Assembly: GCF_013315695.1 (NCBI RefSeq)
Contig: NZ_CP054353.1
DNA length: 64,000 nucleotides
Reading direction: 5' to 3' (one strand)
Source of the DNA: Escherichia coli
Lineage (GTDB): Bacteria > Pseudomonadota > Gammaproteobacteria > Enterobacterales > Enterobacteriaceae
Below, piece by piece: positions 4,509 through 42,132 of the stretch. Numbering within the stretch: the first letter of the stretch is position 1; each line of letters opens with the position of its first letter. The notes under the pieces are model-generated. The model was given only the letters and a program-made list of their open reading frames with translations, had not been told where the DNA came from and searched no databases. The position numbers and the translations under genes were made by a program.

Positions 4509-6671
4509 ATGGCCTTTATGCTAAGTCCTTTGCTCAAACGCTATACCTGGAACAGCGCCTGGCTGTATTACGCGCGTATTTTTATTGCGCTTTGTGGAAC
4601 CACAGCGTTTCCGTGGTGGCTGGGTGATGTAAAACTGACGATTCCGCTGACGCTGGGGATGGTGGCAGCGGCGCTGACCGATCTCGATGACCGACTGGCG
4701 GGACGTTTGCGTAACCTCATCATTACGCTGTTCTGCTTTTTTATCGCCTCGGCCTCAGTAGAACTGCTGTTTCCCTGGCCCTGGCTATTTGCGATTGGCT
4801 TAACGCTCTCAACCAGCGGCTTCATTTTGCTCGGCGGTCTGGGTCAACGCTATGCAACAATTGCCTTCGGTGCGTTACTGATCGCCATTTACACTATGTT
4901 GGGGACGTCACTGTATGAGCACTGGTATCAGCAGCCGATGTATCTGCTGGCCGGTGCCGTCTGGTACAACGTCCTGACACTTATTGGTCATCTACTGTTC
5001 CCGGTCCGCCCGCTGCAGGACAACCTGGCGCGTTGCTATGAACAACTGGCGCGTTACCTTGAGCTCAAGTCGCGCATGTTTGATCCTGATATTGAAGATG
5101 AAAGCCAGGCACCGTTGTACGATTTGGCTCTCGCCAACGGTCAGCTGATGGCGACATTGAATCAGACGAAACTCTCGCTGCTGACCCGCTTACGTGGCGA
5201 TCGTGGTCAACGGGGAACGCGTCGCACGCTGCATTATTACTTCGTCGCGCAGGATATTCACGAGCGTGCCAGCTCTTCTCATATTCAGTATCAAACATTG
5301 CGTGAACATTTTCGCCACAGCGACGTGCTGTTCCGTTTTCAGCGGCTGATGTCGATGCAGGGCCAGGCGTGCCAGCAACTGTCACGTTGTATTTTGTTGC
5401 GTCAGCCTTATCAACATGATCCGCATTTCGAGCGCGCTTTTACGCATATTGATGCTGCGCTGGAGCGGATGCGCGATAACGGCGCACCTGCCGATTTACT
5501 CAAAACACTGGGATTTTTGCTGAACAATTTACGCGCCATTGATGCCCAACTGGCAACAATTGAATCAGAACAGGCCCAGGCACTGCCCCATAATAATGAC
5601 GAAAATGAGCTCGCTGATGACAGCCCGCACGGATTGAGTGATATCTGGCTGCGTCTTAGCCGTCACTTCACGCCGGAATCCGCCCTCTTCCGTCATGCGG
5701 TAAGAATGTCGCTGGTGTTGTGCTTCGGCTACGCCATCATTCAGATAACCGGAATGCATCACGGGTATTGGATCTTGCTGACAAGTTTGTTTGTCTGCCA
5801 GCCAAACTATAACGCCACGCGCCACCGCCTGAAGTTAAGGATTATTGGGACGCTGGTCGGTATCGCCATTGGCATTCCTGTGCTGTGGTTTGTACCGTCA
5901 CTGGAAGGGCAACTGGTGCTACTGGTTATTACCGGCGTGCTCTTTTTTGCCTTCCGTAACGTGCAATACGCCCATGCAACGATGTTCATCACACTTTTGG
6001 TGCTACTTTGTTTTAACTTGCTGGGTGAAGGTTTTGAAGTGGCGTTACCTCGCGTAATCGATACGCTGATTGGTTGTGCCATTGCGTGGGCGGCGGTGAG
6101 CTACATCTGGCCTGACTGGAAGTTTCGCAATCTGCCGCGCATGCTCGAACGTGCCACCGAGGCCAACTGTCGCTATCTCGATGCCATACTGGAGCAATAC
6201 CATCAGGGGCGTGATAACCGTCTGGCGTATCGTATTGCCCGCCGCGATGCACACAACCGTGATGCCGAACTGGCGTCGGTGGTATCAAATATGTCCAGCG
6301 AGCCGAACGTTACCCCGCAAATTCGCGAGGCCGCGTTTCGGTTGCTGTGCCTTAACCATACGTTTACCAGCTATATCTCAGCCCTCGGTGCTCACCGGGA
6401 GCAGTTAACTAATCCTGAAATTCTGGCGTTTCTTGATGACGCAGTTTGCTATGTTGATGGCGCGTTACATCATCAACCTGCTGATGAAGAACGCGTCAAT
6501 CAGGCATTAGCTGGCCTGAAACAGCGGATGCAGCAACTTGAACCACGGGCAGACAGCAAAGAACCTCTGGTCGTACAACAAGTTGGGTTATTGATTGCAT
6601 TACTGCCAGAGATTGGTCGTCTGCAACGCCAGATTACTCAAGTTCCGCAGGAAACTCCTGTTTCGGCGTAA
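4509..6671 (+). CDS. yccS: Inner membrane protein YccS (putative efflux/FUSC-like family)
   Basis: 720-aa polytopic membrane ORF matching YccS; true start could be the ATG at 4518. Confidence 0.85.
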   Translation: MAFMLSPLLKRYTWNSAWLYYARIFIALCGTTAFPWWLGDVKLTIPLTLGMVAAALTDLDDRLAGRLRNLIITLFCFFIASASVELLFPWPWLFAIGLTLSTSGFILLGGLGQRYATIAFGALLIAIYTMLGTSLYEHWYQQPMYLLAGAVWYNVLTLIGHLLFPVRPLQDNLARCYEQLARYLELKSRMFDPDIEDESQAPLYDLALANGQLMATLNQTKLSLLTRLRGDRGQRGTRRTLHYYFVAQDIHERASSSHIQYQTLREHFRHSDVLFRFQRLMSMQGQACQQLSRCILLRQPYQHDPHFERAFTHIDAALERMRDNGAPADLLKTLGFLLNNLRAIDAQLATIESEQAQALPHNNDENELADDSPHGLSDIWLRLSRHFTPESALFRHAVRMSLVLCFGYAIIQITGMHHGYWILLTSLFVCQPNYNATRHRLKLRIIGTLVGIAIGIPVLWFVPSLEGQLVLLVITGVLFFAFRNVQYAHATMFITLLVLLCFNLLGEGFEVALPRVIDTLIGCAIAWAAVSYIWPDWKFRNLPRMLERATEANCRYLDAILEQYHQGRDNRLAYRIARRDAHNRDAELASVVSNMSSEPNVTPQIREAAFRLLCLNHTFTSYISALGAHREQLTNPEILAFLDDAVCYVDGALHHQPADEERVNQALAGLKQRMQQLEPRADSKEPLVVQQVGLLIALLPEIGRLQRQITQVPQETPVSA

Positions 6672-7263
6672 GAGAGTCAGCCCATTCTGCAAGCTCCTGG
6701 CGGCGTGCCACCGGGAGCGCAGCTTCATGAATGCCGATAATGGCCCCTTCAAGCATAAACAGAATCTTTTCTGTCACCAGACTGTTTTGCTGCCGCAGTC
6801 GCAACCAACACATTTTTGCCCCAAGTATACGTAACGCCCGTACATCCTTAATCCCCACCTCCCCGAGAATCGCTTCCAGATGAAAAGACATATTGGGCAA
6901 ATCTTTCAGTCTTTCCCGGGTATTGCGCGTGCTTTTCTCTTTCAGCGCTGCATCGAGAGAATATTTCGACAGACGCACCAGCTTCAGTTGATTTCGCCAT
7001 AGACTTTCATCAACTCGATAGTAATTGAGGGTAACGGATCGGCCACACTTTTTATATGTCAGCCAGACAGGCGGATGTTTTACACAGTACTGTGCACTTT
7101 GCTCACAAGCCCGAAGATACAACTCACCATCAGAAACCATCGCAAACACCGTGTCGTCAACGGTCAGGCTGTAACTGCCAAACAATGATCGGTATTCAAT
7201 TGTGCCCAACGTTGCCAGGTATTCTTGTGATTTATAGATCCGCTTATAGGAGAGGCTTTTCAT
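6634..7263 (-). CDS. sxy: Competence/CRP-S regulon activator Sxy (TfoX)
   Basis: 209-aa ORF matching E. coli Sxy/TfoX; 3' end overlaps yccS convergently. Confidence 0.9.
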   Translation of the reverse strand: MKSLSYKRIYKSQEYLATLGTIEYRSLFGSYSLTVDDTVFAMVSDGELYLRACEQSAQYCVKHPPVWLTYKKCGRSVTLNYYRVDESLWRNQLKLVRLSKYSLDAALKEKSTRNTRERLKDLPNMSFHLEAILGEVGIKDVRALRILGAKMCWLRLRQQNSLVTEKILFMLEGAIIGIHEAALPVARRQELAEWADSLTPKQEFPAELE

Positions 7264-7439
7264 AAAATTCCTTTTAAAATCATAACATAAAAGAATGATT
7301 CACATTAACGGATCCGTTAACTACGAAAATAGGCAACTTATTCTTAAGGGGCAAGATTAATTTATGTTTTCCCGCCACCAACGACAAAATTTGCGAGGCT
7401 CTTTCCGAAAATAGAGTTGATCTTTGTCGTCACTGGATG

Positions 7440-7459
7440 TACTGTACATTCATACAGTA
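7440..7459. promoter_or_regulatory. LexA operator (SOS box) of sulA
   Basis: tactgtacattcatacagta = CTGT-N8-ACAG palindrome 23 bp upstream of the sulA ATG. Confidence 0.85.
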
Positions 7460-7481
7460 ACTCACAGGGGCTGGATTGATT

Positions 7482-7991
7482 ATGTACACTTCAGGCTATG
7501 CACATCGTTCTTCGTCGTTCTCATCCGCAGCAAGTAAAATTGCGCGTGTCTCTACGGAAAACACTACAGCCGGGCTTATCAGTGAAGTTGTCTATCGCGA
7601 AGATCAGCCCATGATGACGCAACTTCTACTGTTGCCATTGTTACAGCAACTCGGTCAGCAATCGCGCTGGCAACTCTGGTTAACACCGCAACAAAAACTG
7701 AGTCGCGAATGGGTTCAGGCATCTGGGCTACCCTTAACGAAAGTAATGCAGATTAACCAGCTCTCCCCCTGCCACACCGTGGAGTCAATGGTTCGCGCTT
7801 TACGCACGGGCAATTACAGCGTGGTGATCGGTTGGTTGGCAGATGATTTGACTGAAGAAGAGCATGCTGAACTTGTTGATGCGGCAAATGAAGGTAACGC
7901 TATGGGGTTTATTATGCGTCCGGTAAGTGCATCCTCTCACGCCACGAGACAACTTTCCGGGCTAAAAATTCACTCTAATTTGTATCATTAA
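7482..7991 (+). CDS. sulA: SOS cell-division inhibitor SulA
   Basis: 169 aa from ATG 7482 ([11 protein letters not shown]...); recognised SulA; LexA box upstream. Confidence 0.92.
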
Positions 7992-7999
7992 GTAAATTT

Positions 8000-8023
8000 A
8001 GGATTAATCCTGGAACTTTTTTT
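8000..8023 (+). terminator. Probable sulA terminator (short hairpin plus T7 tract)
   Basis: aggattaatcct followed by ggaacttttttt. Confidence 0.45.
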
Positions 8024-8214
8024 GTCGCCCAGCCAATGCTTTCAGTCGTGACTAATTTTCCTTGCGGAGGCTTGTGTGAAGCGGTTTCCGCGATTTTCTT
8101 CTGTAAATTGTCGCTGACAAAAAAGATTAAACGTACCTTATACAAGACTTTTTTTTCATATGCCTGACGGAGTTCACACTTGTAAGTTTTCAACTACGTT
8201 GTAGACTTTACATC

Positions 8215-8347
8215 GCCAGGGGTGCTCGGCATAAGCCGAAGATATCGGTAGAGTTAATATTGAGCAGATCCCCCGGTGAAGGATTTAACCGTGTTATCTC
8301 GTTGGAGATATTCATGGCGTATTTTGGATGATAACGAGGCGCAAAAA
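8215..8347 (+). promoter_or_regulatory. ompA 5' untranslated leader (about 133 nt, stabilising 5' stem-loop; Hfq/MicA target region)
   Basis: Sequence gccaggggtgctcggcataagccg... matches the known ompA mRNA 5' end; long leader before ATG 8348. Confidence 0.75.
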
Positions 8348-9400
8348 ATGAAAAAGACAGCTATCGCGATTGCAGTGGCACTGGCTGGTTTCGCTACCGT
8401 AGCGCAGGCCGCTCCGAAAGATAACACCTGGTACACTGGTGCTAAACTGGGCTGGTCCCAGTACCATGACACTGGTTTTATTCCTAACAATGGTCCGACC
8501 CACGAAAACCAACTGGGTGCAGGTGCTTTTGGTGGTTACCAGGTTAACCCGTATGTTGGCTTTGAAATGGGTTACGACTGGTTAGGTCGTATGCCGTACA
8601 AAGGCGACAACATCAACGGCGCATACAAAGCTCAGGGCGTTCAGCTGACCGCTAAACTGGGTTACCCAATCACTGACGATCTGGACATCTACACTCGTCT
8701 GGGTGGTATGGTATGGCGTGCAGACACCAAGGCTAACGTACCTGGTGGCGCATCTTTTAAAGACCACGACACCGGCGTTTCTCCGGTTTTCGCTGGCGGT
8801 GTTGAGTACGCGATCACTCCTGAAATCGCTACCCGTCTGGAATACCAGTGGACCAACAACATCGGTGACGCACACACCATCGGTACTCGTCCGGACAACG
8901 GCATGCTGAGCCTGGGTGTTTCCTACCGTTTCGGTCAGGGCGAAGCAGCTCCAGTAGTTGCTCCGGCTCCAGCTCCGGCACCGGAAGTACAGACCAAGCA
9001 CTTCACTCTGAAGTCTGACGTTCTGTTCACCTTCAACAAAGCAACCCTGAAACCGGAAGGTCAGGCTGCTCTGGATCAGCTGTACAGCCAGCTGAGCAAC
9101 CTGGATCCGAAAGACGGTTCCGTAGTTGTTCTGGGTTACACTGACCGCATCGGTTCTGACGCTTACAACCAGGGTCTGTCCGAGCGCCGTGCTCAGTCCG
9201 TTGTTGATTACCTGATCTCTAAAGGTATCCCGGCAGACAAAATCTCCGCACGTGGTATGGGCGAATCCAACCCGGTTACTGGCAACACCTGTGACAACGT
9301 GAAACAGCGTGCTGCACTGATCGACTGCCTGGCTCCGGATCGTCGCGTAGAGATCGAAGTTAAAGGCATCAAAGACGTTGTAACTCAGCCGCAGGCTTAA
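8348..9400 (+). CDS. ompA: Outer membrane protein A (non-K-12 loop allele)
   Basis: 350 aa from ATG 8348 ([21 protein letters not shown]...); barrel and OmpA-like C-terminal domain conserved; loop segments differ from K-12 sequence as I recall it. Confidence 0.95.
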
Positions 9401-9413
9401 GTTCTCGTCTGGT

Positions 9414-9446
9414 AAAAAACCCCGCAGCTGCGGGGTTTTTTTTCGC
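9414..9446. terminator. Bidirectional intrinsic terminator between convergent ompA and matP
   Basis: aaaaaaccccgcagctgcggggtttttttt: GC-rich hairpin flanked by A- and T-tracts. Confidence 0.85.
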
Positions 9447-9475
9447 CTTTAGTAAATTGAAGTGACTTTTGACAG

Positions 9476-9928
9476 TTATTCCTTACCCAGCAATGCCTGC
9501 AGATCCTGCTTCAGAGAAGACATTTTATTCGCGTATTTCTCTTTGTTTTCCGCATCTTCAATCAGCTGAACAATCGTTTCAGAAAGCGTTTTACCGCGAC
9601 GCTGCGCAAGACCAGCCAGACGTTGCCAGACAATAAATTCCAGATCGATCGATTTTTTGCGCGTATGCTGGTGTTCCGCATTAAAATGGCGCTTCCGTCT
9701 GGCCCGAATGGTCTGCTTCATGCGATTGACCAGTTCCGGATTCATATGCTTGTCAATCCAGCCATTTACCAGCACGGGTTCATTTTCCAGCGAGAGCAAC
9801 ACATCGACGGCTTCCTGGGCGGCACTGGCTTCTATGTAACGGGTGATTAACTCCCCTTCGCGATACTTCTTCACCAGATACTTCCATTTCCAACCGCTTT
9901 CAAGATTTTCAAGTTGTTGATATTTCAT
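9476..9928 (-). CDS. matP: Ter macrodomain organiser MatP
   Basis: 150-aa ORF matching MatP. Confidence 0.9.
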
Positions 9929-10113
9929 AGCGATCTCAATGTTACCGTGTAACTCTTTACAGAATATCAGCTTTTTAGGCCAGTGAAGAAAAGAATCTCC
10001 ATCCTGTGAGCTTTAACGCCCATGCCAGGAGTATTGTCGGTGCTTTCTACGTGTGCTGCAGTGCCGGTTACGGTATAATCGCGGCTTTGACAACAGACTA
10101 AAAAACATCAACT

Positions 10114-11874
10114 TTGACCATTACGAAACTTGCATGGCGTGACCTGGTTCCTGATACCGATAGCTATCAGGAAATATTTGCTCAGCCACATTTGATTGAC
10201 GAAAACGATCCTTTATTCAGTGATACTCAACCGCGACTGCAATTTGCGCTGGAGCAGTTGCTGCATACGCGAGCATCCTCCTCTTTTATGCTGGCGAAGG
10301 CCCCGGAAGAGTCTGAGTATCTGAATCTTATTGCCGATGCCGCGCGTGCGCTACAAAGCGATGCAGGCCAACTGGTGGGCGGTCACTATGAGGTTTCCGG
10401 GCACACCATCCGTTTACGTAACGCAGTGAGTGCAGATGATAATTTTGCGACTTTAACGCAAGTTGTCGCTGCCGACTGGGTAGAAGCGGAACAACTCTTT
10501 GGCTGCCTGCGCCAGTTTAATGGCGACATTACCCTGCAGCCTGGTCTGGTGCATCAGGCAAATGGCGGTATTCTCATCATCTCTTTGCGTACACTGCTGG
10601 CGCAACCTCTGCTGTGGATGCGGCTGAAAAATATCGTTAACCGCGAGCGTTTTGACTGGGTTGCGTTTGATGAGTCGCGCCCTCTCCCCGTCTCTGTGCC
10701 TTCGATGCCATTGAAGCTGAAAGTCATTCTGGTAGGCGAACGCGAATCATTGGCTGATTTCCAGGAGATGGAACCAGAGCTTTCAGAGCAGGCTATTTAT
10801 AGCGAATTTGAAGATACTCTGCAGATTGTCGATGCGGAGTCAGTAAGCCAGTGGTGTCGCTGGGTAACATTGACCGCAAGACATAATCACTTACCTGCAC
10901 CGGGAGCGGATGCCTGGCCAGTACTTATCCGCGAAGCAGCCCGCTACACCGGTGAACAAGAAACACTTCCGCTTAGCCCGCAGTGGATCCTCCGCCAGTG
11001 TAAAGAGGTCGCCTCCCTGTGCGATGGCGACACCTTCTCCGGCGAGCAGCTAAACTTAATGCTGCAGCAGCGTGAATGGCGTGAAGGTTTCCTCGCTGAA
11101 CGCATGCAGGATGAGATCCTTCAGGAGCAAATCCTGATTGAAACCGAAGGCGAACGCATCGGGCAAATTAACGCCCTTTCGGTCATTGAATTTCCGGGTC
11201 ATCCACGCGCTTTTGGCGAACCTTCTCGCATTAGCTGCGTTGTGCATATTGGCGATGGTGAATTCACCGACATCGAACGCAAAGCGGAGCTTGGCGGCAA
11301 TATCCATGCGAAAGGGATGATGATCATGCAAGCGTTCCTGATGTCGGAACTACAGCTTGAGCAACAGATCCCCTTCTCAGCATCGCTGACATTTGAGCAG
11401 TCATACAGTGAAGTGGATGGCGATAGTGCCTCGATGGCTGAACTCTGCGCCCTGATCAGCGCCCTCGCCGATGTGCCGGTGAATCAGAGTATCGCTATCA
11501 CAGGTTCAGTCGATCAGTTCGGTCGCGCCCAGCCAGTCGGTGGTTTAAATGAGAAAATCGAAGGCTTCTTTGCTATTTGCCAGCAACGTGAGTTAACGGG
11601 GAAACAAGGTGTCATTATCCCCACTGCTAACGTTCGCCATTTAAGTCTTCACAGTGAACTGGTGAAAGCGGTAGAAGAAGGCAAATTCACCATCTGGGCA
11701 GTAGACGATGTGACTGACGCACTGCCGTTATTATTAAATCTGGTGTGGGATGGCGAAGGCCAAACGACGCTGATGCAAACCATCCAGGAACGTATCGCAC
11801 AAGCATCGCAACAGGAAGGACGTCACCGTTTTCCATGGCCATTACGTTGGCTGAACTGGTTTATTCCGAACTGA
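10114..11874 (+). CDS. ycbZ: Lon-like protease YcbZ (LonH)
   Basis: 586-aa ORF with apparent TTG start; Lon protease-like C-terminal domain; matches YcbZ. Confidence 0.85.
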
Positions 11875-41058: not shown

Positions 41059-42132
41059 ATGATGAAGCGCAATATTCTGGCAGTGATCGTCCCTGCTCTG
41101 TTAGTAGCAGGTACTGCAAACGCTGCAGAAATCTATAACAAAGATGGCAACAAAGTAGATCTGTACGGTAAAGCTGTCGGTCTGCATTATTTTTCTAAAG
41201 ACAATGGTGTAAACAGTTACGGCGGAAACGGCGACAAAACTTATGCCCGTCTTGGTTTTAAAGGGGAAACACAAATCAATTCCGATCTGACCGGCTACGG
41301 TCAGTGGGAATATAACTTCCAGGGTAACAACTCTGAAGGCGCTGATGCCCAGAAAGGTAACAAAACTCGTCTGGCATTCGCAGGTCTGAAATTCGCTGAT
41401 GCGGGTTCTATCGACTACGGTCGTAACTACGGTGTGGTTTACGACGCACTGGGTTACACCGATATGCTGCCTGAGTTCGGCGGTGACACGGCATACAGCG
41501 ATGACTTCTTCGTTGGTCGTGTAGGCGGCGTTGCTACCTATCGTAACTCCAACTTCTTCGGTCTGGTTGACGGCCTGAACTTTGCCGTTCAGTACTTGGG
41601 CAAAAACGAACGTGCTGGTATTCCTGAGCGTTCCAACGGCGACGGCGTCGGTGGCTCTATCAGCTACGAATTCGAAGGCTTTGGTATCGTAGGTGCTTAC
41701 GGTGCAGCAGACCGTACCGACGCCCAGGAAGCCGAATTCCGCGGTCAGGGTAAAAAAGCTGAACAGTGGGCAACTGGTCTGAAGTATGACGCGAACAACA
41801 TCTACCTGGCAGCGAACTACGGTGAAACCCGTAACGCTACGCCAATTGAAGGCGGCTTCGCCAACAAAACGCAAGACGTTCTGTTAGTTGCGCAATACCA
41901 GTTCGATTTCGGTCTGCGTCCGTCCATCGCTTACACCAAATCTAAAGCGAAAGACGTAGAAGGTATCGGTGATGTTGATCTGGTGAACTACTTTGAAGTG
42001 GGCGCAACCTACTACTTCAACAAAAACATGTCCACCTATGTTGACTACATCATCAACCAGATCGATTCTGACAACAAACTGGGCGTAGGTTCAGACGACA
42101 CCGTTGCTGTGGGTATCGTTTACCAGTTCTAA
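41059..42132 (+). CDS. ompF: Outer membrane porin OmpF (non-K-12 loop allele)
   Basis: 357-aa precursor with signal peptide [22 protein letters not shown] and C-terminal ...GIVYQF; barrel segments match OmpF, loops differ from K-12 as I recall it. Confidence 0.93.

Follow-up and report, generated by a model that had tools for sequence, protein, structure and literature searches.

An ompA gene assigned to the OmpA-long class (outer-loop pattern III, C-terminal pattern beta) in an Escherichia coli chromosome of non-K-12 type

Introduction

Two isoforms of the outer membrane protein OmpA, OmpA-short and OmpA-long, are defined by the length of loop 3, and both barrels have been solved with isoform-specific nanobodies (Commun Biol 2025, PMC12259851). 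In that work the nanobody Nb01 bound OmpA-short only and Nb39 bound OmpA-long only, with extensive contacts to loop 3. A paper published in Nature in 2026 treats the sequence KSNVYGKN ("loop 3a") and a 12-residue "loop 3b" peptide as separate antigens. In the nomenclature of Liao 2017, outer-loop pattern III is characterized by P25, DNI66–68, a long loop 3 ending in KD and an H at the variable loop-4 site, and C-terminal pattern beta by A175, T203 and G251 (mature K-12 numbering). The OmpA of strain K-12 is the (I, alpha) allele, an OmpA-short represented by PDB entries 1BXW, 1QJP and 9FZC. Liao 2022 lists eight alleles for which there were at least 10 isolates, and the combination (III, beta) is not one of them. 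The ompA2 allele of Power et al. 2006, which is pattern II in Liao 2017, lowers bacteriophage sensitivity according to the title of that paper as it stands in the reference list of Liao 2017. A mosaic, recombination-driven evolution of loops 1–3 of E. coli ompA has already been published (preprint).

We describe here the ompA gene present in the window, a stretch of 64,000 nucleotides of E. coli DNA (contig NZ_CP054353.1). The original prediction, made from the letters of the sequence alone, presented this gene as an OmpA loop variant with an insertion in loop 3 and suggested a non-K-12 background.

Results

The ompA gene and its flanking signals

The ORF listing and the translation showed an intact reading frame of 350 codons plus stop, starting with an ATG at position 8348 and ending with a TAA at position 9400. 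In the NCBIfam search the product matched the equivalog NF008071 "porin OmpA" with 674.3 bits (cutoff 277), and residues 1–350 were covered. The Pfam search located the barrel domain PF01389 at residues 23–199 (E = 1.2e-79) and the domain PF00691 at residues 226–321 (E = 8.7e-24). When structure chains were compared, the solved OmpA C-terminal domains 2mqe and 4erh matched the C-terminal domain of the window protein. The features of the locus are the following:

8134–8347, plus strand: upstream region with the ompA 5' UTR and promoter, identical to K-12 (nucleotide comparison)
8348–9400, plus strand: ompA coding sequence, assigned to the OmpA-long allele of pattern III and beta (ORF call, translation, NCBIfam NF008071)
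8348–8410, plus strand: signal peptide of 21 residues, identical to K-12 (alignment with K-12)
8411–8935, plus strand: eight-stranded beta-barrel, precursor residues 22–196 (PF01389; identity of 9fzd_A over 22–195)
8477–8788, plus strand: divergent mosaic segment, codons 44–147, loops 1–3 (nucleotide comparison with K-12)
8483–8485, plus strand: loop 1 variant codon, P46 of the precursor and position 25 of the mature protein, N in K-12 (alignment; Liao 2017, Table 3A, position 25)
8606–8614, plus strand: loop 2 variant codons, DNI at precursor residues 87–89 and mature residues 66–68, SVE in K-12 (alignment; Liao 2017)
8732–8764, plus strand: loop 3 variant of 11 residues, precursor residues 129–139, SNVYGKN in K-12 (alignment; Liao 2017)
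8855–8902, plus strand: loop 4 of 16 residues, identical to K-12, with H at the H/N site and G154 kept (alignment; definitions of Liao 2017)
8945–8989, plus strand: Pro-rich hinge of 15 residues, identical to K-12, with A at mature position 175 (alignment)
9023–9310, plus strand: C-terminal OmpA-like peptidoglycan-associated domain, residues 226–321 (PF00691)
9029–9031, plus strand: codon ACC, T228 of the precursor and mature K-12 position 203, where K-12 has AAC for N (alignment)
9411–9446, no strand assigned: intrinsic terminator hairpin between the convergent genes ompA and matP (folding)

The neighbours of ompA were sulA (7476–7991, plus strand) and matP (9476–9928, minus strand), followed by sxy and ycbZ. 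The order sulA, ompA, matP was the same in K-12 and in the strain MSB1_4I, the K-12 order being read in reverse. The nucleotide comparison showed zero differences from K-12 in the 214 nt directly 5' of the gene, and within 360 nt the only mismatches were at positions 8076, 8096 and 8133. The ompA leader is approximately 133 nt long. On the other side of the gene, folding revealed a terminator hairpin, CCCCGC-AGCT-GCGGGG, at 9420–9435, with an A-run and a T-run on either side (MFE of −21.1 kcal/mol, z = −4.3). A scan of positions 8000–9500 with consensus promoters and terminators gave nothing above the expectation from shuffled sequence and missed the ompA terminator as well. The ompA of the window is an intact gene, in its usual place and with its usual flanking signals.

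The terminator, lying in the 9401–9475 spacer between ompA and matP, differed from that of K-12 at several bases. The hairpin loop was GCAGCTGC in the window and GCTGCTGC in K-12, a change which makes the stem-loop perfectly palindromic, and the A-run preceding the hairpin was GGTAAAAAACCCC as compared to GGTAGAAAAACCCC in K-12. The interval 9400–9499 held six of the differences from K-12 that were seen in a 5.4-kb comparison. Sub-threshold Rfam matches to Leu_leader and istR, observed on both strands over the hairpin when positions 6500–11,000 were scanned with a permissive E-value, were taken as chance.

Comparison with the K-12 protein and gene

Global alignment with the OmpA of MG1655 (b0957, NC_000913) showed eight substitutions and a length difference of four residues. 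The features of the K-12 allele, N25, SVE66–68, SNVYGKN and N203, were all absent from the window protein. The loop differences named in the original prediction were all recovered: FIPNNG (residues 44–49) in place of FINNNG in loop 1, which corresponds to N25P; a loop 2 (residues 85–94) different from KGSVENGAYK, through SVE66–68DNI; and in loop 3 a stretch of 17 residues, four more than TKSNVYGKNHDTG in K-12, with S108A, Y111P, the additional GASF and N114D. Identity to K-12 OmpA on proper alignment, by which the prediction proposed to be judged, was therefore not observed. It had in addition described the barrel, the hinge and the periplasmic domain as unchanged. At the protein level this was correct for the non-loop barrel and for the hinge, but the periplasmic domain carries N203T, the sole replacement outside the loops. 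The signal peptide and loop 4 were also identical to those of K-12, so that the two proteins share, from the same locus, everything except the tips of loops 1–3 and residue 203 of the C-terminal domain.

At the DNA level the two genes were separated by 37 substitutions and one length difference of 12 nt, the extra nucleotides of loop 3 being placed by alignment at 8746–8757. Thirty of the 37 substitutions fell within the 312 nt from 8477 to 8788 (binomial p = 6e-11), as did 14 of the 20 purely silent codon differences (p = 3e-4). This segment was 10.0% divergent from K-12, not counting the 12-nt difference, compared to 0–1.1% for the remaining part of ompA. The clustering of differences in the loop 1–3 segment far exceeds chance. 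By the Nei–Gojobori method the loop codons showed a dS of 0.48 and a dN of 0.10, values that come from approximately 35 synonymous sites only; dS was 0.06 and dN 0 in the non-loop barrel, and 0.04 and 0.003, respectively, in the C-terminal part.

Allele class and closest relatives

Mature position 25 in loop 1 was P, mature positions 66–68 in loop 2 were DNI, and loop 3 at residues 129–139 was of the long type with 11 residues, four more than SNVYGKN, all as in pattern III. The loops 1–3 of ompA2, as described in Liao 2017, are the same as those of the window. This pattern II allele has N at the H/N site of loop 4, whereas the window has H (GDAHTIG) and corresponds to pattern III. In the C-terminal half, A200, T228 and G276 of the precursor are A175, T203 and G251 of pattern beta. 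Using the criteria of Liao 2017 we assign the allele to (III, beta), an OmpA-long isoform, which settles the allele class that the original prediction had left to be determined by alignment. The H/N site is called "position 149" in Liao 2017 and is mature residue 151 by direct count (8873–8875, precursor H176, GDA-H-TIG), so that the numbering discrepancy lies in the literature and not in the sequence.

The closest solved structure was the OmpA-long barrel in complex with Nb39 (PDB 9FZD). Its chain 9fzd_A was identical to the window protein over residues 22–195, all four loops included; the construct is the barrel alone with an N-terminal cloning residue, and the identity covers the barrel only. 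The "loop 3b" peptide of the 2026 Nature paper has the loop-3 sequence of the window. The OmpA of Shigella flexneri, a receptor of phage Sf6, has DNI in loop 2 and shares its loops 1–3 with E. coli UMNK88 (preprint); its loops 1 and 3 are probably identical to those of the window. A possible identity with the published Shigella dysenteriae OmpA was dropped, as strain Sd197 has SVE in loop 2 (preprint). The ompA allele of the window is common and already known: it has a name, its structure has been solved and its phenotypes have been studied.

Frequency of the allele and strain background

At least 1000 contigs of the protein collection carried exactly this 350-residue protein, whose entry there is "MULTISPECIES: porin OmpA [Enterobacteriaceae]"; its accession in MSB1_4I was WP_000750418.1. 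Of 5426 complete E. coli genomes, 2060 (38%) gave a full-length match to a 65-nt loop-3 probe which has no 28-mer in common with the short allele. This fits the published frequencies of the long loop, 39.7% in Liao 2017 and 43% by PCR in Power 2006, the latter as quoted in Liao 2017. Over the whole gene, 1022 genomes were at least 99% identical to the window, and at least five, those of the five best rows, were 100% identical.

An ompA match was obtained in 5425 of the 5426 genomes. The total number of matches was 5428, five of them on records labelled as plasmids, and a single genome was without a match. These cases may reflect plasmids that carry chromosomal fragments, replicons that were mis-assigned, or a strain devoid of ompA.

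Positions 1–25,000 of the window were 100% identical to E. coli MSB1_4I, isolated from a human rectal swab in Australia. Four more genomes, also listed at 100.0% but with bit scores slightly below, were near-identical; the next ones, among them IAI39 and CE10, were at 99.3%. Only 174 of the 5426 genomes reached 99% identity over these 25,000 positions. The non-K-12 background that the original prediction had read from ompA and ompF agrees with this: the exact colinearity with MSB1_4I extended over window positions 1–30,396, and ompF (41,059–42,132, plus strand) encodes 357 residues compared to 362 in MG1655 (b0929, 1089 nt).

The colinearity with MSB1_4I was broken at position 30,397. A copy of IS1A at 29,629–30,397 interrupts elfD, a fimbrial chaperone gene, in the window as in MSB1_4I. 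Exactly at the outer end of the IS1A (30,396/30,397), the window lacked 999 bp present in MSB1_4I, corresponding to the ssuE–elfA spacer, elfA and a 5' piece of elfD. The junction was found in one piece in none of the complete E. coli genomes of the collection. The difference looks like an IS1-adjacent deletion which took away the gene for the major subunit of the Elf/Ycb fimbriae, and is unrelated to ompA.

Loop forms in related species

The loops were then located in a scan of one genome per species using the conserved flanks of loop 3. At least 120 loci were found and 99 full ompA genes were extracted; the sample was without E. fergusonii and other Escherichia species. Among the loci listed, DNI in loop 2 and a loop 3 (13 residues) with the motif xNVPGGxSxKD were both present in E. 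albertii, in Escherichia sp. E1V33 and in two divergent species representatives labelled E. coli. The same combination was seen in S. enterica arizonae and diarizonae, in several Citrobacter (among them C. amalonaticus and C. sedlakii) and in a Leclercia. In Silvania a related 13-residue loop 3 was observed, with DNI confirmed in one of two genomes. The P of loop 1 was common to the window, to E1V33 and to both Salmonella subspecies, and C. amalonaticus and C. sedlakii had the 11-residue loop 3 of the window without change. Of the 100 OmpA sequences parsed, within the loci listed, only that of K-12 associated SVE with SNVYGKN; SVE alone was also seen in one Buttiauxella MAG.

The two closest Escherichia relatives (the pair L004/L105) each differed from the window in detail. 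The OmpA of E1V33 has DNI, ANVPGGPSFKD and the P of loop 1, and that of E. albertii has DNI and the 11-residue loop 3 of the window type, but a D in loop 1 (IDNNG). Both differ from the window by N203 and by a few barrel substitutions. Two rarer loop-3 forms of E. coli, AHNNVTG(E/V)SEKN (pattern V) and SNVPGGVSTKD, were the resident forms in divergent Escherichia, Escherichia sp. MOD1-EC7003 (L095) and E. coli SCPM-O-B-8794 (L016), respectively, an indication that several loop-3 variants of E. coli are common to more than one species.

The divergence of the 312-nt segment of the window was the following:

Against Escherichia sp. E1V33: 1.6%
Against E. albertii: 3.2%
Against Citrobacter (amalonaticus, sedlakii): about 6%
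Against Salmonella: 7–9%
Against K-12: 10.0% and a 12-nt gap

The K-12 segment itself was 9–12% divergent from these Escherichia, Salmonella and Citrobacter relatives. On the 3' side of the segment, the window differed from K-12 by 1.1%, from E. albertii by 3.3% and from Salmonella by about 10%.

Discussion

The ompA of the window is very probably the chromosomal gene of a non-K-12 E. coli that carries a common, natural OmpA-long allele of pattern III and beta. Since the loop motifs recur in related species and the segment is nearer to other Escherichia than to K-12, the long loop looks ancestral-like and vertically inherited, and the short-loop segment of K-12 looks like a derived outlier, a polarity deduced from sequence comparison. 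The loop-3 "insertion" of the original prediction thus stands as a four-residue excess over K-12, but it is an insertion only relative to K-12, the outgroups pointing to the long loop as the ancestral-like state. A fuller scenario would have the long loops ancestral to Escherichia, Salmonella and Citrobacter, the K-12 segment of about 310 nt being of divergent origin, and phages and antibodies exerting a frequency-dependent selection that keeps both forms at approximately 40:60 in E. coli; we would give this scenario an even chance. If true, the ancestral position of the long loop contradicts Liao 2017, in which pattern (III, alpha) was considered as "newly emerged" relative to (I, alpha) on the basis of the genome similarity of strains.

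A recent horizontal import of the loop segment from another genus, for example Citrobacter or Salmonella, would explain the identical 11-residue loop 3 of C. amalonaticus and C. sedlakii, and would be in line with the published local mosaic recombination in ompA and with the MULTISPECIES label of the exact protein. It appears improbable, as a recently imported segment would be nearly identical to that of one donor, whereas the observed distance of the segment grows with phylogenetic distance (1.6–3.2%, then about 6%, then 7–9%), in the same order as in the remaining part of the gene, which is the expectation from vertical descent. Exchange of the segment between E. coli lineages is likely. With K-12 taken as the reference, the natural reading would be that of a recent extension of loop 3 in the window lineage from an ancestral K-12 form, and the speculation of Liao 2017 goes in this direction. 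We regard this as very unlikely given the recurrence of xNVPGGxSxKD with DNI from E. albertii and E1V33 to the Salmonella subspecies, Citrobacter and Leclercia, the restriction of SVE with SNVYGKN to K-12 among the parsed sequences of the loci listed, a dS of the segment too high for a recent event, and the presence of the long form in more than a third of the complete E. coli genomes. That the gene would really be the K-12 allele, altered by a sequencing or assembly artefact or compared to an erroneous K-12 sequence (the original prediction was made without database searches), is hardly credible in view of the alignment with b0957, of the same 1053 nt in five independent complete genomes and at least 99% identity in the 1022 genomes mentioned above, and of a crystal structure of the same barrel.

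The preferred reading, a natural OmpA-long allele, has consequences that concern the cell surface. The product is a normal OmpA: a Sec signal peptide precedes an eight-stranded barrel bearing four outward loops, and a Pro-rich hinge leads to the periplasmic peptidoglycan-associated domain. The allele alters only the tips of loops 1–3 (P25, DNI66–68 and the long loop 3) and, through N203T, one residue of the C-terminal domain. Conservation of the barrel, of the regulatory region and of the periplasmic fold leads us to infer that the housekeeping role, anchoring of the outer membrane via the periplasmic domain and a small pore, would be unchanged. Residue 203, a catalogued polymorphism, has been reported to track differences in hydrophobicity and biofilm between N and T. 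The surface epitope, on the other hand, would differ for the receptor-binding proteins of phages, for colicins, for antibodies and for nanobodies, and other groups have demonstrated such an effect on recognition in experiments with sets of loops that are identical or very similar.

The role of the loops as determinants of phage and colicin recognition, to which the original prediction referred, is well supported in the literature. OmpA is a receptor of colicins U and L (preprint), the mutations conferring phage or colicin resistance are mostly in loops 2 and 3, and in Shigella the "NI" residues of the loop-2 DNI influence the entry of Sf6 (preprint). G154D blocks F conjugation and some phages; the alignment showed that G154 is retained in the window. 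In a study in which eight natural variants of OmpA were compared in isogenic MG1655 strains, phages with a type-1 Gp38 infected all eight, whereas those with a type-2 Gp38 infected variants 1, 3 and 4 only, a pattern ascribed by the authors to loop 2a combined with loop 3a or 3b. Loop 2a is presumably the SVE form, since E89 is placed in loop 2 of the type-2-sensitive variants, and the DNI/long allele of the window is predicted to be refractory to the narrow type-2 Gp38 phages. From the identity with the 9FZD barrel, the window protein is likewise predicted to be bound by Nb39 and not by Nb01. An O-antigen or a capsule may mask OmpA.

The practical value of the finding is limited to typing. 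Reagents against OmpA-long, such as Nb39 and anti-loop-3b antibodies, are predicted to recognize the OmpA of this strain, and recognition by reagents for the K-12-type SVE/short loops and by narrow-host-range Gp38 phages is predicted to be poor. This bears on phage-therapy matching, on diagnostics and on OmpA-based vaccines. The consequences of the allele class are already established, and the window yields no new biology beyond a non-K-12 chromosome. The loop segment is an example of the mosaic evolution by local recombination already published for the porin loops of E. coli. In this gene the set of loops would be the ancestral-like one of Escherichia, Salmonella and Citrobacter, and the short loops of K-12 lie on a segment of about 310 nt that is approximately 10% divergent from all those sampled. 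For users who take K-12 as the default, the small corrective is that the odd segment would be that of K-12.
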